Assembly (NCBI GenBank): GCA_052361145.1
Contig: JBQVMC010000001.1
Location: 1 to 35,572, forward strand
DNA length: 35,572 nt
DNA from: Methanosarcinaceae archaeon
GTDB lineage: Archaea > Halobacteriota > Methanosarcinia > Methanosarcinales > Methanosarcinaceae
Direction: 5' to 3'
Position 1 is the stretch's first letter, and each line of letters starts with the position of its first letter. A program made the position numbers and the translations under genes. Below, piece by piece: positions 13,239-33,924 of this stretch. A model generated the notes under the pieces. It had not been told where the DNA came from and ran no database searches. It worked only from the letters and a program-made list of their open reading frames with translations.

Positions 13239-13521
13239 ATGACATATAGCATTTTCATCCATAATCGATACATTGTTCTTCCTTTTAACAATCCCCGTTG
13301 CAGCCTAGGTACTAACAGTATGAAACCGCTGAATACAATGCAACACAGGAGTTTGATAACATTACCGATGAGGATATTTGTGTGTGGCTGTCTTACTTTA
13401 TCAAGACATGTGCTAGAATGACGCCATAGGGCTAAAACAAATAAATAATCGATATTTATTTAATGATTGTAATCAATGAACATTGTCATTAATAAGTACC
13501 TCGTAATATGTGGGGATATCT

Positions 13522-14664
13522 ATGAAATATACATATCAGGATTCTAAAAAATTATCACAGCAGAGGGATTTCGTACAGGATTTAAGAAATTTCATTGAGG
13601 CTGCAAAAAAAGTGCTTCCTCTTGAAAATTCTGCGATCGAGATGAACGATGAGGAAAAGTCGGAAGTAATCTCGCTTGAGAACAGGCTTAATGACCTGGA
13701 CAAGTTTGAAACGGATATAAAAAAATTTGTAGATAATGCATCTAAAGATGCAGATGCAAAAGAAATACTTGAATGCAGGAATACCATCATTGATGCCTGT
13801 GTTGCAAGTGCAGCTAGAAACCGGGAAATCCTGAAGTCGGAACTTGAGCGGAGCCAAAAGGTATATACACGCGAAGGCAGCAGGTTAGAATCCCATATCC
13901 TATCGCTTCTTGACCCTATGTTTGAAAATGGAATATACGGTGCTGAAAAGAAGTATTCTGTGATTATGGATGACGATTTGCTTCAGGGTAATTTGGCAGC
14001 ATCGATAGCAGGTATGGATTACGAATCTAACATTGTGTTTGCGAATGGTTTGCTGACGGTCAAGGATTTGTTCGAGAACCTGTCTTTACCCACATGGGGC
14101 AAGAGTGGCTTGCTGCAAAAAGAGAAGAAGATCAAGATCATTGATGTATCGGATTTTGTTATTACTTCTATTGATTACAATAGCTCCATCAATTTGTCAT
14201 TGGAATACACTTTTGAGAATAAGAAATCCGGGCGAAGTTTCAGGATTACCTGTGATGAGAATAAATGCCATGTTTATGGCGATGAACAGTCTATTACAGG
14301 TGACGATGCGCTTTTGAATTTTATTAATATGAGTGACATTTCTGAATTTGCAGATGAGGTCAAGAAATATGTGCAAGATAACATCAGTTCACAAACGCTG
14401 ACCCGTATATTGATCGATGGAAAGGATGCTATCAGGAACAATGAAGTATTTGATTGTTTAAAGATCATTGCTGAGCAGTATGGAGATATTATACATGAAT
14501 GTCTTGAACGAGGCTATGTTAAGTCAGAGATCACGATCAAGATCGAACAGGCTGACGGCACAAGGACAGAAAAATACATAACCAAGGAAGATGTGTTCAA
14601 CCAGTTATCCGAAATAGGCAGCGAAGGGCTTGAACTTGCCGGTATTCTTGGCGTTGAAGAGTGA
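13522..14664 (+). CDS. hypothetical protein (orphan, N-terminal coiled-coil)
   Basis: Long clean ORF. I prefer ATG 13522, preceded by GGGGAT, over the track GTG at 13510. No recognisable domain. Confidence 0.55.
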   Translation: MKYTYQDSKKLSQQRDFVQDLRNFIEAAKKVLPLENSAIEMNDEEKSEVISLENRLNDLDKFETDIKKFVDNASKDADAKEILECRNTIIDACVASAARNREILKSELERSQKVYTREGSRLESHILSLLDPMFENGIYGAEKKYSVIMDDDLLQGNLAASIAGMDYESNIVFANGLLTVKDLFENLSLPTWGKSGLLQKEKKIKIIDVSDFVITSIDYNSSINLSLEYTFENKKSGRSFRITCDENKCHVYGDEQSITGDDALLNFINMSDISEFADEVKKYVQDNISSQTLTRILIDGKDAIRNNEVFDCLKIIAEQYGDIIHECLERGYVKSEITIKIEQADGTRTEKYITKEDVFNQLSEIGSEGLELAGILGVEE

Positions 14665-15495: not shown

Positions 15496-16887
15496 ATGGA
15501 GAACAAAATAATGAATCAACAATTTGCATCTGTGACCGTGGTGCTATCAATGTTCCTGTTCCTCGCGTGTGTGGGATCGGCAGCAGCATCGATCTGTACG
15601 GACTGTCACATTGCTGTTACCCCTGAGATCGTCGATGACTTCAATAGCGGCGTAATGGGTAGTGAAATAGATTGTTCGAATTGTCATGGATCCGCACACA
15701 ATTCGGCTGATACTGTGGATCAGGTGAAGCTGCCGACACACGAGACATGCGGAGCGTGCCATGCAAAGCAGGACGCTCAGTATATGGACGGTAAGCACAG
15801 TATCGCATGGACTGCGTTTATGGCAATGCCAACTACAGCCGATCAACCAATAGAATTAATGGAAGGCCAAAAAGGCTGTGGAGGATGCCACAAGATCGGA
15901 GCGAAAAATGAAACCGGCTGGGATGAGTATCATTACGGCGTTGTGGGCTGTGATAACTGCCATACGCGGCATAGTTTCTCAGTAGAGGAAGCAAGAAGAC
16001 CGGAAGCATGTATGACATGTCACCAGGGTTTTGACCATGCCCAGTGGGAGATGTACTCAACCTCGAAACACGGTTCGATATACCTGACAGAAGGCAACAA
16101 CTGGGACTGGAGTGCATCCTTAAGCGATGCGAAAGAGAGTTACACCGCTCCAACGTGCCAGATGTGCCACATGACTGACGGAAGCCACTATGTTATAACT
16201 TCATGGGGATTCCTTGGCGTTAGGGTCGAGGAGCCAAATGAAGAATGGGCTGAGGACAGGGTATCTGTCTTAAAATCATACGGCGTTCTTGATGCAGAAG
16301 GAAATACGACACCAAGGTTCGATATAATAGGTCCTGCAAAGATTGCAAGGATGACAATGGATGAGTGGAATGAACCCCGTGAGAAGTTGATCACAGTATG
16401 TAGCGACTGCCACTCAGAGAAGTTCGCAAGACTCTCACTTGAGGAAGGTGACCATATGCTCCGGGAAGCTGATCGGGTATATGCGGAGTCGGTCGAGATC
16501 GTTGCAGCACTTCACCGCGACGGTATACTCCCTAAGCCCGAATACATCGATGAACTCCCGTCCTATCCATATCCTGATGTTCTCAGGTTCTATGACCAGT
16601 CACACGCGATAGAGGAGGATCTCTGGCTTATGTGGATGGAGTACCGAATGCGTACTTTCCAAAGCGCGTTCCACGCAAATGCGGATCAGGAACAGTGGTA
16701 TGGCTGGGCACCGCTCAAGGAAACAGCAGTGAGGATCAAGTCAGAAGATAGGAGCCTACGGGCTGAAGCAAAACTTGCAGAGGCTATAGAGGGTGGAGCA
16801 AGTTCACAGAGTACCCCCGGGTTCGGAGCAATGCTTTTAGGTGCTGCGTTTGTTTCCCTGGCTATTCTATTTAGAAGAAGGGGATAA
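15496..16887 (+). CDS. HAO-family octaheme c-type cytochrome with signal peptide and PGF-CTERM archaeosortase sorting signal
   Basis: Eight CxxCH motifs: CTDCH, CSNCH, CGACH, CGGCH, CDNCH, CMTCH, CQMCH, CSDCH. The HAO-like stretch is CDNCHTRHSFSVEEARRPEACMTCHQGFDHAQWEMYSTSKHG. The C-terminus is STPGFGAMLLGAAFVSLAILFRRRG. Confidence 0.85.
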   Translation: MENKIMNQQFASVTVVLSMFLFLACVGSAAASICTDCHIAVTPEIVDDFNSGVMGSEIDCSNCHGSAHNSADTVDQVKLPTHETCGACHAKQDAQYMDGKHSIAWTAFMAMPTTADQPIELMEGQKGCGGCHKIGAKNETGWDEYHYGVVGCDNCHTRHSFSVEEARRPEACMTCHQGFDHAQWEMYSTSKHGSIYLTEGNNWDWSASLSDAKESYTAPTCQMCHMTDGSHYVITSWGFLGVRVEEPNEEWAEDRVSVLKSYGVLDAEGNTTPRFDIIGPAKIARMTMDEWNEPREKLITVCSDCHSEKFARLSLEEGDHMLREADRVYAESVEIVAALHRDGILPKPEYIDELPSYPYPDVLRFYDQSHAIEEDLWLMWMEYRMRTFQSAFHANADQEQWYGWAPLKETAVRIKSEDRSLRAEAKLAEAIEGGASSQSTPGFGAMLLGAAFVSLAILFRRRG

Positions 16888-20397: not shown

Positions 20398-21609
20398 TCA
20401 AGTAATGGTGTCGCTCAACCATTCATAGATGGGTTTTATAATGATTGTTTTGTCATTCATGATGATGGTCTCATTTTCATTTTCAGTTATTATGAGTCCT
20501 GCATATAGATTATGAGCATTCATTGCCTCTATTAGTCCTCTAATCTCGCGTTTTCGTGTGCTTTCGTTTTTAAGAGTCATTGTGACCTGTATAGCAGATG
20601 TGATATCTAGCCCTTCCTTGGTTATAAAATCACATTCATATTTATCCTTGTGGTAATATATTTCCCTGTACTGTCTTTTCAGGGTCATATGTACAAGGTT
20701 TTCAAGTAATCTACCTCTATTTTCAGAAAATTTGAATGAAACTGAATTTACCAATCCCGTGTCGAGACAATATATTTTCTTCGGGTTTATTGTCTGCTTT
20801 TTCACAGACTTGTCATATTTCGTTAATATGTATATAAGATATGAATCTTCTGCACAATTCAGGTATTCTTTTACTGTTTCATTTGTTATGTTCAGGATTT
20901 TTGCTATTTTTGAATAAGAGAATGGTTTTGCAATGTTTGAGATGATAAAGTAGAGCAGGTTGAATACGTCCCTGTTGTTACGCAGGTTGTTGGGATAGAT
21001 GATGTCTTTTAGATAGATTGTCTGGAAATATTTACTTAGGATCTCCTGTTTCAGTTCGTTGTTTTTTTCCAGCACAATTCTAGGATAAGCACCAAATTCA
21101 AGATAGTTGTTGAAGTATTGGAGTTTCTCAACGATTGTTAATTTGTGAACATTGTTAAAGCTCAAGTATTCACTAAACGAGAGTGGATGAACAGGTATTG
21201 AAAAATACCTGCCTGATAACCTGATACTCATCTCTTTTTTAAGAAGGCCGGATGTTGAACCTGTGAGTATGATCTTAATGTTCGTTATGGTATCAAACAA
21301 CATCTTGATAGTCTGTATCCAGTAATCATAGTTCTGTATCTCGTCTATGAAAAGGTAAAGGGTCAAAGGTTTTTGGAGTGCTAGATGGTGCTCTATTATC
21401 TCTGTTAGGTATGTCGGGTCTTTAGATTTACTCTGGAACAAGGGCTCATCGAGATTGATAAATAGTATTTCTTCAGGTGGCACATTGTTATCCAGCAGTT
21501 TTCTTATAATCTGGTAAGCAAGTGTTGACTTTCCAATACGCCTTGCACCTGTTAGCAAAAGTATTTCCCTTGTACCGAGATATTTCGTAAGTTTTGGGTA
21601 CCATTGCAA
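20398..21609 (-). CDS. AAA ATPase with DUF4143-type C-terminal domain (COG1373-like), N-terminally truncated by an in-frame TGA
   Basis: Walker A GARRIGKST and Walker B LFIDEIQ. The track ORF starts at a TTG. The same frame continues upstream to ATG 21690 (MDERVKIALERQNP*WFGKPFNTGVDRL) with one TGA at 21646-21648. Confidence 0.7.
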   Translation of the reverse strand: MQWYPKLTKYLGTREILLLTGARRIGKSTLAYQIIRKLLDNNVPPEEILFINLDEPLFQSKSKDPTYLTEIIEHHLALQKPLTLYLFIDEIQNYDYWIQTIKMLFDTITNIKIILTGSTSGLLKKEMSIRLSGRYFSIPVHPLSFSEYLSFNNVHKLTIVEKLQYFNNYLEFGAYPRIVLEKNNELKQEILSKYFQTIYLKDIIYPNNLRNNRDVFNLLYFIISNIAKPFSYSKIAKILNITNETVKEYLNCAEDSYLIYILTKYDKSVKKQTINPKKIYCLDTGLVNSVSFKFSENRGRLLENLVHMTLKRQYREIYYHKDKYECDFITKEGLDITSAIQVTMTLKNESTRKREIRGLIEAMNAHNLYAGLIITENENETIIMNDKTIIIKPIYEWLSDTIT

Positions 21610-28160: not shown

Positions 28161-29414
28161 TTGTCAGAAATATCAAGTATGGTAGTAACGCATGCTAAAG
28201 CCAGTATTGAAGAAATGGAAAGTGCGTGGCATGGTGATCTTGAAAGTATGTTAAGACCCTTGTACTCGCAGGAATTAATTTATGAATGCGCAGTGCTCAA
28301 AACCTGTAACAGAGTTGAAATATATGTTGTTTCACCAAAAGGAAGTCAAATACTGTTCCATTTTGCAAAGAAAATGGGCGTATCTTCAAGGATCGTTGAG
28401 TTCTATGACCATGATGAGACGCTATTACATCTTTTAAGACTTGCATCAGGTCTTGAATCCATGATTGTCGGGGAAGACCAGATACTCGGGCAGATAAAAG
28501 AACTGTACGGTATCGCAAAGGAGATCGGCACAACCGGCAAGATGCTTGATACCACATTCAGCAAAGCGATACAGGTTGGAAAAAGGGTGCGCACAGAAAC
28601 GGGCATTAACAGGGGTTCGGTTTCTATAGGTTCTGCGGCAGTCGATCTTGCAGACGAAATACTTAATGGCCTTATCGGCAAAACGATCCTTGTTATTGGT
28701 GCAGGTGAGATGGGAACACTTGTTGCACGTGCACTTGCCCACAAGAATATTGATGCAATATACATTGCAAACCGGACATTCGAGAAAGCAAAGATGCTTG
28801 CTGAAGAACTGGGCGGACTGGCTGTTCCTTACAGCGAGGTAGGAGAATATGTGAAAGATGCAGACGTGGTCATTAGTGCAACATCGGCACCGCATTATGT
28901 GTTGACAAAAGAGATCATGTCAAAAGCGATGGAGAACAGGAATAGTGCGATCCTTTTGATCGATATTGCGAACCCGCGTGATATAGAGGATTCGGTCACA
29001 CAGGTTATGAATGTAACGCTTCATAATATCGACAGCTTGCGTATTATCAATGAAAAGAACATGCAGATGAGGCGTGATGAAGCAAAAAAGGCAGAGGTCC
29101 TGATAGAAGAAGAACTTGTACTACTTAAAACCCAGTTCAAGCGGCAAAAAGCAGATGGGTTGATATCTGAATTATATGAACGGATCTATAAAGTGCGCGA
29201 GCATGAAAAGGAGCGTGCGATCAATCGCTTGAAAGCATATCACTCGATCGGAGAGATTGAAACAAAGGTAATCGATGACCTGACACATTCTATTGCCAAC
29301 AAGATAGTGGCAGAGCCAACAAAAGTCCTGAGAAATGCGGCAGAGCATGATGATGAAGATATGCTGGATACAGTGTCCAGGTTGTTCAAACTAAACGGTG
29401 CAAAAAAGGAGTGA
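28161..29414 (+). CDS. hemA: glutamyl-tRNA reductase
   Basis: [10 protein letters not shown] (catalytic Cys), [28 protein letters not shown] start with GGAGGAT 4 nt upstream. Confidence 0.93.
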
Positions 29415-29418
29415 TATT

Positions 29419-30393
29419 ATGTTTCCACAGGTTCGAATGCGAAGGTTAAGAAGTGGCAAGATACGTGATCTGGTGCGTGAAACCGCACTTACGACAGATA
29501 ACTTGATATATCCAATGTTCGTGGACGAAACCATTGGTTCTGCTGTGGAGGTTTCTTCTATGCCTGGCGTATACAGGCTGCCCCCTGGCAGTGTGGCTGA
29601 TGATGCAAAAGAAGCCTCTGACCTCGGGATTCCTGCGGTAATCCTTTTCGGGATTCCGAAGAACAAGGATGAAACGGGTACGACCGCCTATGGTGACAAT
29701 GATGTTGTCCAGCAGGCTGTCCGTGAGATCAAGGATGAACTTGGAAAAGACATGGTCGTGATTACTGATGTGTGCCTGTGTGAATATACGTCCCACGGAC
29801 ATTGCGGTATTGTTGACTATGATACAGAGGAGATCTTGAATGATCCGACCTTGCCGCTGCTTGGCAAAACTGCAATAAGTCATGCAAAAGCAGGCGCGGA
29901 TATTATTGCGCCTTCCGGAATGATGGACGGGATGATCGGTACGATACGCTCTGCTCTTGACAAAAATAGTTTTGATAATATTCCGATAATGTCGTATGCT
30001 GCAAAGTATTCCTCTGCATTTTACGGGCCATTCAGGGATGCGGCAGAATCCGGTTATTCGTTCGGTGACCGCTCAAGTTACCAGATGGATCCTGCAAACT
30101 CAAATGAGGCTATGCGTGAAGTTGCGCTTGACATTCAGGAGGGTGCTGATATTATAATGGTTAAGCCTGCACTTCCCTATCTTGATATACTCTACCGCAT
30201 CAAGACCGAATTTGAAATGCCAACGGCTGCATACAATGTAAGCGGGGAATATTCAATGTTAAAAGCCGCTGCGCAGAACGGCTGGCTGGATGAAAAAGCG
30301 GTTATGTACGAGTCGCTTCTCTCGATCAAACGCGCGGGTGCAGATATGATTTTGACATATTTCGCAAAGGATATGGCGCGTATTCTGGGGTAA
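29419..30393 (+). CDS. hemB: porphobilinogen synthase (delta-aminolevulinate dehydratase)
   Basis: [25 protein letters not shown] (Zn site), [22 protein letters not shown] 29419 is preceded by AGGAGTGAT. Confidence 0.95.
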
Positions 30394-30535
30394 AGCACAA
30401 TATATCTTACAAGTGGAATGCAATAGATTTCCTGCTGTGTCGCCACTTATTATTAAGATTAAAATAATGTATTGTATTATTGACAATAATATTTATTTCA
30501 AATATTTATCAACAATAAACCATAGGTGTTTAATC

Positions 30536-30682
30536 ATGGTGAGAAGAGATATTGTTCAAGTAAAAAATCCGAAATCCGGACATTATGTGAAAATCGATAG
30601 ATCTATCGGTAAAATTCTTAGTTATAAGAAAACGGAAGGGGCATACAAAAATGTGCCAATTGCGAGAAAGAGGACTGAATGA
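30536..30682 (+). CDS. small basic protein (48 aa), function unknown
   Basis: MVRRDIVQVKNPKSGHYVKIDRSIGKILSYKKTEGAYKNVPIARKRTE. AGGTG lies 8 nt upstream of the ATG. Its stop overlaps the next ORF start in ATGA. The track version from 30413 runs through an AT-rich leader and is unlikely. Confidence 0.45.
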   Translation: MVRRDIVQVKNPKSGHYVKIDRSIGKILSYKKTEGAYKNVPIARKRTE

Positions 30683-31317
30683 TACTCTACAGGCCTGATG
30701 GCGATGTTCACACTACCCACATAAAATATCGTCCAAGAACCTGTTTTACTATGACTAAACTTGGTCAGCCAATTTCACCTGAGATAAAAAATATAAGAGT
30801 TGAACTGCGTAGAGTGTTAATAAAACGACAAATTGAGGAAGTCGATGCTGAAAGTGTTGTTACAGGACGAGATTTTTTAATGAAGATCTGGAACCTGATT
30901 ACAACTGTACCATTAGGAATTGCGATCATTGATAACAATATGTCCGGACAGACCCTTTCTAATGTTTTTTATGAAATCGGATTTATGCAGGCTTATGGTA
31001 AAGAAACTTTAGTTATAAAAACAAAAGATGTAAAAATACCATCCGATTTTATTCGAACCGAATATGTTGAATATGGGAATGGTTTTGAAAATAAATTGGA
31101 TAAATTCTTCAATACTTTCTTTGCACTACCGGAACATTATGATGATATGGCAGAAGTGCTTGAAAACAACCCCCTTTTAGCAATTGATTATTTGCGAAGA
31201 GCATATTTAATTACTGGTGACTTAAAATATAAGGAGAAAGCCAATGTTATTTATGAAGATGCATCAATTGATGGGAGAGCAAAAAATAGTGTGGAGGCTT
31301 TGTTAGTTAAATTTTAA
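30679..31317 (+). CDS. TIR-like / nucleoside 2-deoxyribosyltransferase-like domain protein with a helical C-terminal region
   Basis: 212 aa. The core is PLGIAIIDNNMSGQTLSNVFYEIGFMQAYGKETLVIKTKDVKIPSDFIRTEYVEY. It follows the strand / N-V-x-[FY]-E-x-G / G-K-x-strand / P-S-D pattern I associate with COG4271/DUF1863 TIR-like and NDT-like domains. The coding call is solid; the family call is by eye only. Confidence 0.55.
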   Translation: MILYRPDGDVHTTHIKYRPRTCFTMTKLGQPISPEIKNIRVELRRVLIKRQIEEVDAESVVTGRDFLMKIWNLITTVPLGIAIIDNNMSGQTLSNVFYEIGFMQAYGKETLVIKTKDVKIPSDFIRTEYVEYGNGFENKLDKFFNTFFALPEHYDDMAEVLENNPLLAIDYLRRAYLITGDLKYKEKANVIYEDASIDGRAKNSVEALLVKF

Positions 31318-31371
31318 GAGTCTTTAAGTTCGAATCACAATCCAACAAATTTTATAATCAATGGTGATCAC

Positions 31372-32649
31372 ATGAGTTTAGAAAAATCAAAACTATTATA
31401 CGAAAAAGCCAGGACACTCCTTCCAGGTGGAGTTAGCAGTCCGGTTCGGGCGATTAAGCCGTATCCATTCTACACAACATCTGCAAGCGGTTCAAAGATT
31501 ACGGATGTTGACGGGAACGAATACATTGATTATTGTATGGCATATGGTCCGAAAATACTCGGACACGCCCATCCGCGTATCAAGCAGGCGATAGTTGGGC
31601 AATTGGACAATGGGTGGCTGTATGGTACACCTACAGGCCTTGAGGTGACACTTGCGGATAAGATCGTTTCCCTCTATCCGAGCATTGACATGCTCAGGTT
31701 TGTTACAACCGGCACGGAAGCGACCATGAGTGCACTCAGGGCGGCGCGCGGGTTTACGGGTAAGAACAAGTTTATAAAAATAGAAGGGGGCTTCCACGGT
31801 GCGCACGAGGCGGTGCTTGTCAAGGCAGGTTCCGGTGCGACCACACACGGCAAACCGGATTCGCTCGGTATACCGGAAGATTTTACAAAAAATACGCTTC
31901 AGGTCCCGTATAACGATATTGAGGCAATGGTAACTGCCATCGAGTCCAACAAAGATGATATGGCTGCGGTTATTATGGAACCTGTTATGGGAAATATAGG
32001 TCCTATCCTTCCGGAGGGAGATTATCTAAAAGATGTGCGCAAGGTCACAGAGGAGAACGATGTTGTCCTGATATTCGATGAAGTTATTACAGGATTCCGG
32101 CTTGCCATGGGGGGTGCACAGGAATATTATGGCGTTACGCCTGATATGACAACACTCGGGAAGATTGTTGGTGGCGGAATGCCTATTGGTGTGTTTGGAG
32201 GACAGCGCGAGATAATTGAGATGATCTCACCCTCGGGAGGTGTGTACCAGGCAGGCACATTTAGCGGCAGTCCCGTTTCTATGGCAGCCGGTATTACAGT
32301 GCTGGATATTCTTGAAAAGGAAAACGTGCATAGAACATTGAATGCCACAGGCGATGCAGTGCGTGCCCGGTTGTCTGATATTGTTTCGGATATGGGGCTT
32401 GGTTATAATGTATCCGGAATTGCATCGATGTTCAAGATATTCTTTGGGGATGCTCCTTTAAACTATCAGGAAGCACTCAAATGCGACAAGGAAAGATACT
32501 TCGAGTTCTTCCACAGGATGCTGAAGAGCGGGGTTTTCCTGCCGCCATCGCAGTTCGAGACGAATTTCATCTCAACCGCCCACAATAAATCCGATCTTGA
32601 CAGGACTTACGAAGCCTATGAGGCGAACCTGAAAGGTGTTAAAGAATGA
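31372..32649 (+). CDS. hemL: glutamate-1-semialdehyde 2,1-aminomutase
   Basis: [48 protein letters not shown] (PLP lysine). Confidence 0.95.
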
Positions 32650-33590: not shown

Positions 33591-33638
33591 GAAGGGAATG
33601 TTTGTCTCTTTGTTTTGATGAGTATTATACAATGTTTA

Positions 33639-33751
33639 GTATCCACTTCAAAAAGCAGGGTAAAATACATGTTCAGATTATCTATATCAAGTGTCTGAGC
33701 ATCTTTTGATTTCAAAATGGAGTCAGTTACCTTTAGATTTGAAACGGATAC
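33639..33751 (+). mobile_element. MITE copy D with a perfect 8-bp target-site duplication
   Basis: GTATCCACTTCAAAAAGCAGGGTAAAATACAT ... CTTTAGATTTGAAACGGATAC, flanked on both sides by AATGTTTA. Confidence 0.72.
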
Positions 33752-33924
33752 AATGTTTAACTGTATGAACAGGATTTACGGTATGTTGGTTGCATTTTCA
33801 TCCTGTGCATGGTTCGTTGATTTTAATAATATGATACCATATTTGGTAACATGTCCTAAATGATGGAGTTGCCCATACAGTGTGCTAGAATGAATTTAAG
33901 AGATACTAAAGAGACGTGACAGAT

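Follow-up and report, generated by a model that had tools for sequence, protein, structure and literature searches.

A candidate TIR-like conflict cassette with a 48-residue partner at the hemB–hemL junction of Methanosarcinaceae

We analysed a 35,572-nt (35.6-kb) window of contig JBQVMC010000001.1 from a Methanosarcinaceae archaeon; positions are coordinates of this window on its forward strand, and other genomes and loci are given by L numbers. Between hemB and hemL the window carries an AT-rich cassette of two overlapping genes, ORF1, encoding a basic protein of 48 residues (aa), and ORF2, encoding a 212-aa protein predicted to adopt the fold shared by TIR domains and nucleoside 2'-deoxyribosyltransferases (NDTs). 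We put at roughly 0.55 the probability that this cassette is an accessory, horizontally spread module of the toxin-antitoxin (TA) or abortive-infection type, in which a TIR-type NADase effector would be held in check by the small partner. An earlier note, made from the sequence by itself, had read the tiny coupled partner as the layout of a TA or minimal defence module, and this proposal gained support because the pairing of the two genes is near-obligate, their overlap is conserved, defence and mobile-element genes occur in the neighbourhoods and a HicAB pair occupies the same junction in other genomes. We infer the toxin and antitoxin roles, together with the enzymatic activity and substrate of ORF2, its toxicity, the direction of regulation by ORF1 and the trigger.

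Gene order and composition of the cassette

The tetrapyrrole genes of the window form a row of ahbB-like, sirC-like, hemA, hemB, hemL and hemC, followed by pyrD. The row is tightly packed, as the earlier note had described, with an overlap of hemA and hemB and a 4-nt overlap of hemL and hemC. At hemB and hemL, 978 bp separate the hemB stop (30393) from the hemL start (31372), and two ORFs lie inside. The features of the locus, with the fraction of G and C given as GC, are as follows.

29398..30393, + strand: hemB (porphobilinogen synthase), upstream flank; PF00490 ALAD, E=2.6e-148
30394..30535, + strand: AT-rich 5' leader of the cassette, 142 bp; GC 0.254
30536..30682, + strand: ORF1, 48 aa; ATG start; matches PADLOC PDC-S38
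30679..30682, + strand: ATGA stop/start overlap of ORF1 and ORF2, read in the sequence
30679..31317, + strand: ORF2, 212 aa, predicted TIR/NDT fold; AlphaFold2 (AF2) model and Foldseek
30739..31083, + strand: TIR-like alpha/beta core of ORF2, aa 21-135; family alignment and predicted secondary structure
30973..30975, + strand: codon of Glu99 in NVFYEIG, predicted catalytic; E99 in 35/35 sequences; helix alpha-C (90-105)
31084..31314, + strand: acidic five-helix C-terminal domain of ORF2, aa 136-212; AF2 helices; net charge -4
31318..31371, + strand: spacer with the native hemL ribosome-binding site GGTGAT (31363-31368); sequence comparison
31372..32649, + strand: hemL (glutamate-1-semialdehyde aminomutase), downstream flank; PF00202, E=2.3e-67

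The block of about 0.98 kb had been called AT-rich by eye. Windowed GC now gives 0.326 for its 978 bp, against 0.470 for hemB and 0.480 for hemL, and only 0.8% of the 978-nt windows in a scan of the whole 35.6 kb are equally AT-rich. The GC of third codon positions (GC3) is 0.254 in ORF2 and 0.46-0.49 in the flanks. The two co-oriented frames with their ATGA overlap are present in the sequence as reported, and so is the Lys/Arg-rich, cysteine-free composition of ORF1.

The leader contains an imperfect palindrome (30448-30491) and an AGGTG Shine-Dalgarno sequence (30524-30528) that stands 7 nt ahead of the ORF1 ATG (30536). It is kept in L015 and L016, is missing from the empty site of L020, and may hold a promoter or operator of the cassette's own. 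A scan of the cassette for sigma-70 promoters and terminators gave nothing above shuffled expectation, the consensus used being bacterial and inapplicable to archaea. At the other end, the window shares the motif AATGGTG(A/T)TCACATG with the empty site of L020 and with the sites of L017 and L019 that HicAB occupies. Because the hemL ribosome-binding site is common to all three junction states, we place the downstream insertion boundary within 31318..31371.

Occupancy of the hemB–hemL junction in related genomes

Relatives were found by a HemB scan of GTDB species genomes; the window HemB is 92-94% identical to that of ANME-3/'Candidatus Methanovorans'-like metagenome-assembled genomes (ANME, anaerobic methanotrophic archaea). 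The earlier note had taken the cassette to be an insertion into an otherwise contiguous hem row, and the junctions agree. About 35 other Methanosarcinales, including Methanolobus, Methanococcoides, Methanomethylovorans, Methanohalophilus and Methanosalsum, have an empty junction of 9-147 bp, among them L020 with 93% HemB identity and a 50-bp spacer. The cassette is found in a minority, comprising the window, L015, L016, L018 (at a contig end), Methanolobus sp. L024, M. sediminis L001, L175 and L176/L177. Presence across relatives is patchy and the composition deviates from the flanks, the opposite of a gene pair held at this junction in all relatives with native composition.

A different cassette of ~550 bp (GC 0.36) occupies the junction in two genomes with 92-93% HemB identity (L017:5390-5942 and L019:3188-3736). 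It consists of a HicA toxin gene (PF07927, E=7.5e-15, above cut-off) and a HicB-like ORF (71-74 aa) that overlaps it; a stop seems to shorten the HicA frame in L019. Judged from these sequence comparisons, the hemB|hemL cassette is accessory and the junction is a hotspot. The archaeal ORF2 copies are 69-91% identical among themselves and at most 66% identical to bacterial ones. Because all the copies share the hemB|hemL site and the archaeal ORF2 proteins are closer to each other than to the bacterial ones, the comparison suggests one entry into Methanosarcinaceae, after which the cassette was either lost repeatedly or spread via flank homology.

Two observations concern these junctions more generally. 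In the close relatives L021 (6094-7074) and L051 (6100-7080), an ornithine cyclodeaminase/mu-crystallin gene (PF02423, E=2e-107) and not hemL follows hemB, which points to a rearrangement at the hemB|hemL junction. A second junction of the row, hemC|pyrD, is also variable: the genes are 11-58 bp apart or overlap in ~40 Methanosarcinales, and the spacer measures 325 bp in the window (33591-33915; GC 0.33), 215 bp in L015 (9170-9400) and 680 bp in L016 (8320-9015). Within this spacer lies a palindromic element, GGATGAACAGGATTTACAGGATG...CATCCTGTAAATCCTGTCCATT, which in L015 is clean and in the window degenerate, and which may be of the miniature inverted-repeat transposable element (MITE) or repetitive extragenic palindrome (REP) type.

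Pairing, coupling and decay of the two genes

In a metagenome scan seeded with ORF1, an ORF2 homologue directly follows ORF1 in 75 of the 78 loci that have downstream room. Loci seeded with ORF2 gave the reciprocal result, with ORF1 immediately upstream in 17/17 (~11 distinct contexts). The 4-nt ATGA/GTGA overlap occurs in 54 of 63 distinct full-length cassettes and a 1-nt overlap in 5 more (59/63 overlapping), an arrangement that by sequence would couple translation of ORF1 and ORF2. The only long spacers among the 63 cassettes belong to copies of the Methanolobus lineage (L024:6236-6338; L176:4795-4908; L177:1953-2066), in which ~100-110 nt replace the overlap and the coupling appears to be relaxed. 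The gene layout is that by which type II TA systems are recognised, with a small partner gene and a putative toxin gene that are adjacent and co-inherited.

Comparison with the orthologous cassettes of L015 and L016 gave dN/dS values of 0.16-0.40 for ORF1 and 0.16-0.23 for ORF2. Against a Methanolobus copy the synonymous sites are saturated, with a proportion of synonymous differences (pS) of 0.86 and of nonsynonymous differences (pN) of 0.15. Given the low dN/dS and the hundreds to thousands of homologues, both ORFs are read as real genes under purifying selection. The dS of the cassette is lower than that of the flanks against L015 and similar against L016, AT-biased codon usage confounding any dating of the transfer from these values.

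Decay is seen in 11 of the 78 loci, with ORF1 intact and ORF2 absent, truncated, frameshifted or interrupted. ORF2 is missing beside an intact ORF1 in L101, L113 and L154, and is deleted internally, truncated, frameshifted or interrupted in L110, L170, L153, L155, L167, L169, L148 and L142. An internal deletion in L110 (1807-2298) leaves N- and C-terminal ORF2 fragments, and in L142 (82-2177) ORF2 diverges past ~aa 144 and a 454-aa ORF directly follows. A 68-aa protein (P0214), in which ORF1 is fused to the final ~15 residues of ORF2, is a further decay product. No intact ORF2 without ORF1 was seen in the sampled loci (78 ORF1-seeded, 17 ORF2-seeded).

Fold and predicted active site of ORF2

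The core quoted in the earlier note, GIAIIDNN...LSNVFYEIGFMQAYGKETLVIKTKDVKIPSDF..EYVEY, is present in ORF2, and its placement in a TIR/NDT-like group was borne out by modelling. The AF2 model, built on a 35-sequence alignment, reached a predicted local distance difference test score (pLDDT) of 83 and a predicted template modelling score (pTM) of 0.81. It comprises a short N-terminal extension, a b-a-b-a-b-a-b-b core and five helices at 136-210, the last of which account for the helical tail of about 70 aa that had also been proposed. Foldseek returned PDB entries 9lmq, 8qhr, 7o62, 4jen, 7un8, 8p2m and 8w8m at probability 1.00, so that structural relatives, whose absence the earlier note had regarded as fatal to its proposal, are at hand. 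The matches at this probability include TIR-STING (9lmq, 7un8), DNPH1, several NDTs, the CMP N-glycosidase BcmB, and SARM1, TIR-1, MyD88 and plant TIR domains; for the single-domain matches the target-normalised template modelling (TM) score is 0.6-0.66. In a viral structure library a CMP/hydroxymethyl-CMP hydrolase came top, accompanied by a 'Cap12/Pycsar effector TIR' protein and NDTs. On the predicted structure, ORF2 has the flavodoxin-like fold of the TIR/NDT superfamily.

The closest sequence clade of ORF2 appears to be the effector-type TIR family PF10137. This is the sole recurrent profile, weakly matched by 26 of 35 ORF2 family members (best E=5.5e-5). The family profile also recovered distant relatives of 220-370 aa (E=1e-17 to 1e-30), whose own matches to PF10137 reach 23.5 bits over positions 9-118/119, and the homologue P0102 carries a precomputed PF10137 annotation. 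These results indicate homology, short of formal membership. Nuc_deoxyrib_tr (PF05014) does not match ORF2 and weakly matches 2/35 relatives (best E=0.0091). ORF2 had no match in NCBIfam and only chance-level TIR-effector matches in PADLOC, and its profile found no meaningful match among PDB chain sequences. A word-indexed search gave 810 homologues and clustering at 50% gave 900 representatives, of which 59 have E<=1e-30; all are ~213 aa and annotated 'hypothetical'. Because the first 24 residues (MILYxPxDGDV....YRPxTCF), with a 20-aa N-terminal extension, are conserved in the family, we take the ATGA as the true ORF2 start; the NCBI annotations of 187-188 aa for ORF2 homologues are, by the same alignment, truncated.

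The alignment outlines a probable active site. Invariant positions are T26 (after beta-1), D56, D65, T92, N95, F97, Y98, E99 and G101, followed by G107-K108-E109, P121-S122-D123 and R126-T127-E128-Y129, which makes the N-x3-E...PSD motif invariant. The glutamate of the [FY]-E-x-G turn, singled out in the earlier note as conserved, is the invariant Glu of FYEIG (35/35). In SfSTING's TIR domain, E84 on helix alpha-C is catalytic, N80 and S10 are ligands of ribose and phosphate, and the dimer mate contributes D110 to complete the site (PMC9402430). The N95-x3-E99 ... D123 spacing of ORF2 mirrors N80-x3-E84 ... D110 of SfSTING, and we infer the residue correspondence from this motif spacing, not from superposition. 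What is expected of a catalytic TIR domain, a Glu on alpha-C together with ribose/phosphate ligands, is found in ORF2 as the invariant residues E99, N95, T26 and D123.

Outside the core, the most conserved stretches of ORF2 are two segments of the tail, NPLLAIDYLRRAYLITG (161-180) and GRAKNSVEALL..F (200-212), with column identities of 0.88 and 0.83. One distant relative has a weak TPR_2 match. We propose that the tail is a regulatory, oligomerisation or ORF1-binding domain.

The small basic partner ORF1

ORF1 has the sequence MVRRDIVQVKNPKSGHYVKIDRSIGKILSYKKTEGAYKNVPIARKRTE, with 8 K, 5 R, 2 D, 2 E and no Cys; across its family the mean net charge is ~+10 and the mean pI ~10.4. Homologues of 47-57 aa numbered 103 in a single-sequence search and 1906 in a profile search, with 60-90% identity across phyla and the consensus IVQVKNPKSGHYVKIDRxxGKIxxHKKSEGPYKNVPIARK. 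The AF2 model (pLDDT 76) is a three-stranded antiparallel beta-meander (strands 6-10, 17-21 and 26-30) with an extended basic tail. Foldseek of this model against the PDB gave no significant structural match (best E=0.55), and the ORF1 profile found no meaningful match among PDB chain sequences.

The one convincing match of ORF1 is to the PADLOC model PDC-S38 (57 positions; E=1.1e-8), which 27/27 family members also hit (best 1.2e-13). The PDC entries are 145 untested candidates picked by 'guilt-by-embedding' within BREX, DISARM and type I restriction-modification (RM) operons (bioRxiv 10.1101/2024.01.29.577857). The lipoyl/biotinyl hairpin of GcvH was matched as well, though faintly (E=0.009-0.06), with scores of 13.7 bits for Pfam GCV_H against a cut-off of 22.2 and 12-16 bits for NCBIfam gcvH against cut-offs of 116-117. 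We rejected an identity of ORF1 as a GcvH or lipoyl-biotinyl carrier, the scores being far under the cut-offs and most contexts unrelated to cofactors. Two bacterial insertions do sit in a biotin-carrier operon (L002, accB|accC) and a lipoate operon (L012, lipB..|lipA), which alongside this match we judge to be coincidence.

Distribution and genomic contexts

The family comprises at least 800-1900 proteins from Methanosarcinaceae, Chloroflexi, Desantisbacteria, Actinobacteria, Balneolaceae, Thermoanaerobaculia and many metagenomes. Defence or mobile-element genes are present in many of the neighbourhoods sampled, and several contexts are housekeeping operons. In Desantisbacteria the cassette is wedged co-oriented within accB|accC, and elsewhere within lipB-coaX|lipA, where the ORF2 stop overlaps lipA. 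The defence and mobile contexts include:

L006: integrase, GIY-YIG and protein kinase
L008: MobC, relaxase and integrase
L009: AIPR
L106 and L107: HsdS and AbiEi
L124: reverse transcriptase
L138: NERD
L150: Mrr
L162: DUF499
L164: Prok-E2/ThiF and type III RM
L168: Eco57I-type methylase

In a GenBank phage set, the sole relative of ORF2 is distant (34% identity over 113 aa, aa 20-132; E=1e-3) and comes from Streptococcus pyogenes prophages. It is a 259-aa protein of prophage 315.2 (SpyM3_0974, L014:3465-4244) and five Javan prophages, encoded in the lysogeny module between repressor/integrase genes and cro; the protein has no Pfam match, and its gene may be a TIR-like one borne by prophages.

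Three Desantisbacteria contigs (L002:10620-11154, L004:5231-5589 and L005:5012-5594) carry, some kilobases downstream of the cassette, tiny ORF pairs of 68-84 aa and 47 aa with a 4-nt overlap and a lone 48-aa ORF. They adjoin a PDDEXK_2/Rpn-like gene and may be additional mini TA-like cassettes.

The remaining window is ordinary chromosome, with genes for MoeA, an aminotransferase, eIF2-gamma, a PurP-like protein, NfeD, a multi-haem cytochrome, UvrA, a radical-SAM/SPASM protein and AsnC-type Ahb regulators. It has a few additional low-GC patches. One of them, at ~19.7-21.5 kb and among the most AT-rich parts, contains an AAA_14/DUF4143 ATPase gene (20398-21609, - strand) just downstream of uvrA that may be a further acquired gene. 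A 384-aa ORF with no Pfam match (13510-14664, + strand) lies near a low-GC region, upstream of the multi-haem cytochrome gene (15496-16887; PF13447).

Proposed mechanism and alternatives

We propose that the insertion at hemB|hemL dates from an ancestor that belonged to the Methanolobus/ANME-3 group of Methanosarcinaceae. ORF2 would be the effector, a divergent TIR-type domain with a catalytic Glu and Asn and Asp ligands, which when active would arrest the cell by cutting the N-glycosidic bond in NAD+ or, with lower likelihood, in a nucleotide. Activation of TIR NADases depends on oligomerisation, through TIR-TIR assembly into composite active sites (PMC9402430; bioRxiv 10.1101/2022.05.04.490601). 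ORF1 would be made first and, through coupling, in fixed stoichiometry; it would bind ORF2, probably at the acidic conserved helical tail, and block the oligomerisation required for activity. ORF1 may additionally bind nucleic acid. Its loss, displacement or titration, for example upon infection or loss of the cassette, would then free the effector. Restraint of ORF2 by ORF1 is favoured because of the gene order and overlap, the one-sided decay and the interchangeability of the site with HicAB.

Several results weigh against this proposal. ORF2 passes no Pfam, NCBIfam or PADLOC model threshold; its own match to PF10137 (CAP12-PCTIR_TIR) covers aa 86-125 only and scores 17.4 bits (E=0.0044) against a gathering cut-off of 24.7, and the Foldseek E-values are modest, the best being 2.5e-4. 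ORF1 is far better conserved than usual antitoxins, at 60-90% identity across phyla, is basic and not acidic, and has no recognisable DNA-binding or antitoxin fold. The asymmetry of decay is biased by how the loci were seeded. With regard to horizontal spread, all Methanosarcinaceae copies found sit at hemB|hemL, with no visible movement within the family; tblastn of ORF1 and ORF2 against PLSDB plasmids gave no match, and the ORF2 profile found no relative in IMG/VR viral contigs. Around the cassette there are no terminal direct or inverted repeats and no target-site duplications beyond short chance-level repeats, and therefore no evidence for a transposon- or integron-like mechanism.

The conservation and charge of ORF1 would also fit a nucleic-acid-binding protein, and ORF1 could equally be a sensor or activator. 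Such a protein would bind an infection cue, for example foreign nucleic acid, and nucleate ORF2 into an active TIR oligomer, in parallel with the ligand-driven filament formation of TIR-STING and TIR-SAVED and the oligomerisation that activates TIR NADases (PMC9402430; bioRxiv 10.1101/2022.05.04.490601). A net charge of ~+10 and extreme conservation are expected of a protein that binds a universal ligand like nucleic acid, and strict co-occurrence and coupling suit a two-part machine as well as a TA pair. However, ORF1 matches no nucleic-acid-binding fold, the order of a small upstream gene and a downstream effector with stop/start overlap is the classic antitoxin-toxin layout, and the persistence of ORF1 where ORF2 has decayed is more easily explained if ORF1 protects against ORF2. 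We regard an activating ORF1 as unlikely. A bolder extension, which we offer as a speculation with some chance of being right, is a pan-prokaryotic immune or addiction system in which ORF1 is an infection-sensing switch that gates TIR NADase oligomerisation and the module is adapted to embedding in essential operons. ORF1 would then bind, for example, nucleic acid or a universal cell component, and embedding (hem, acc, lip, RM/BREX) would give constitutive read-through expression and protection from deletion.

The fold of ORF2 bears on its chemistry. Foldseek places DNPH1, NDTs and BcmB alongside TIR-STING, the top of the viral library is a CMP/hydroxymethyl-CMP hydrolase and the 2/35 weak Nuc_deoxyrib_tr matches point the same way, all of which could suit an N-glycosidase of nucleotides or nucleosides, of the NDT/DNPH1/MilB/BcmB type, that is regulated by the small partner and depletes or modifies (deoxy)nucleotides, such as phage-modified bases, in place of NAD+. 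We consider this substrate rather unlikely, as the recurrent profile is PF10137, the N-x3-E...P-S/T-D pattern mirrors the TIR-STING NADase site, and NDT-type phosphate- and deoxyribose-binding motifs were not identified in ORF2. A Thoeris-like pair, with ORF2 as a ThsB-like TIR making a signal derived from ADP-ribose (ADPR) and ORF1 as the signal-activated effector, has precedent in the many two-gene TIR operons with unexpected partners, sometimes small or of unknown function, that are now predicted or verified Thoeris types, DUF2188 being one putative partner (bioRxiv 10.64898/2025.12.03.692087). It is very improbable here: ORF1 is a hydrophilic basic beta-meander of 48 aa without a transmembrane segment, enzymatic domain or ligand-binding fold, it is upstream and translationally coupled, and ORF2 is nearer the effector-type PF10137 than the TIR_2/DUF1863 typical of ThsB. 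Equally improbable is a housekeeping role, in which ORF2 would act in salvage or repair as a LOG/NDT-like enzyme, accompanied by a small chaperone, and would belong to the heme, biotin or lipoate operons that contain it. The co-oriented insertions in hemB|hemL, accB|accC and lipB-coaX|lipA and the faint GcvH match of ORF1 could be read in this way. Yet ~35 close relatives keep the hem operon without the cassette and sister genomes have HicAB in its place, the composition is foreign to the flanks, most bacterial contexts are of the RM, abortive-infection (Abi), integrase or reverse-transcriptase type, and in ORF1 no carrier-type conserved motif with a modifiable Lys was identified.

Significance

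TIR-domain NADases are central immune effectors from bacteria to plants and animals. In prokaryotes their triggers include cyclic nucleotides, Argonautes, NLR-like sensors and Thoeris signals. In the cassette a minimal TIR-like enzyme is accompanied by a 48-aa protein whose conservation exceeds that of the enzyme, and no curated database describes the pair. Should it prove to be a TA or defence module, TIR effectors would gain a new regulatory logic, and ANME and methanogen archaea, of whose defence repertoire little is known, a tractable candidate system. Junctions inside essential operons would then be hotspots that alternately hold different selfish cassettes, as with the TIR cassette or HicAB at hemB|hemL. 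Should ORF1 instead be an infection-sensing switch, it would show TIR effectors under a new control principle, and the embedded module would stand out among defence modules by its lifestyle. The cassette is compact (~0.8 kb), widespread and easily tested heterologously.

Comparison with known systems

The PF10137 TIR NADases (Cap12 of CBASS, PycTIR of Pycsar, TIR-STING and TIR-SAVED) share with ORF2 the flavodoxin-like TIR fold, the Glu on alpha-C within N-V-x-[FY]-E-x-G and the downstream P-[ST]-D loop. Unlike them, ORF2 is without STING, SAVED or another cyclic-nucleotide sensor; its tail of five helices is acidic and its 48-aa partner obligate. No CD-NTase or PycC cyclase was found beside the window cassette or in any surveyed context. 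The NDT/DNPH1/MilB-BcmB N-glycosidases resemble ORF2 in fold and in the position of the nucleophilic or catalytic Glu (target-normalised TM 0.6-0.66), but they have 11-20% identity to it and are stand-alone metabolic or antibiotic-pathway enzymes without a coupled mini-partner. Thoeris (ThsB TIR and effector) is likewise a two-gene operon with a TIR-fold protein; it is associated with defence islands, and defence genes occur in many sampled neighbourhoods of the cassette. It differs in that ORF1 is no plausible signal-activated effector and ORF2 resembles the effector-like PF10137 TIRs and not the TIR_2/DUF1863 ones typical of ThsB. In its proposed working the cassette is like a minimal TIR-effector conflict system and like a type II TA cassette; it falls outside CBASS, Pycsar and Thoeris.

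Type II TA systems, such as the HicAB pairs of L017 and L019, resemble the cassette in being small two-gene units in which a small upstream gene overlaps the effector gene by 4 nt. They are also alike in patchy distribution, AT-rich foreign composition, insertion in or next to operons and decay of the toxin gene while the partner stays. The differences lie in ORF1, which is basic, exceeds the putative toxin in conservation and lacks a ribbon-helix-helix (RHH), helix-turn-helix (HTH) or AbrB fold. NAD-degrading toxins are known in TA systems, for example RES-Xre and MbcTA; a TIR-fold toxin with an ORF1-like partner is absent from the TA families among the Pfam and PADLOC matches obtained here.

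PDC-S38 (Payne et al., bioRxiv 10.1101/2024.01.29.577857) shares the habit of embedding; the cassettes of L106 and L107 adjoin HsdS. PDC-S38 differs in being a single-gene, untested candidate, and the 212-aa TIR-like partner has no PADLOC model, so that neither the two-gene nature nor the effector is captured in PADLOC. The earlier note had put the system forward as a candidate for an undescribed one. For ORF1 this holds only in part, given its match to PDC-S38; for the pair it holds, the two-gene system and its TIR-like effector not being described in Pfam, NCBIfam, PADLOC v2 or the literature searched, including the 2025 systematic TIR survey. The effector class and the general logic are familiar, ORF1 has already been flagged on its own as PDC-S38, and the two-gene system is absent from the resources searched.

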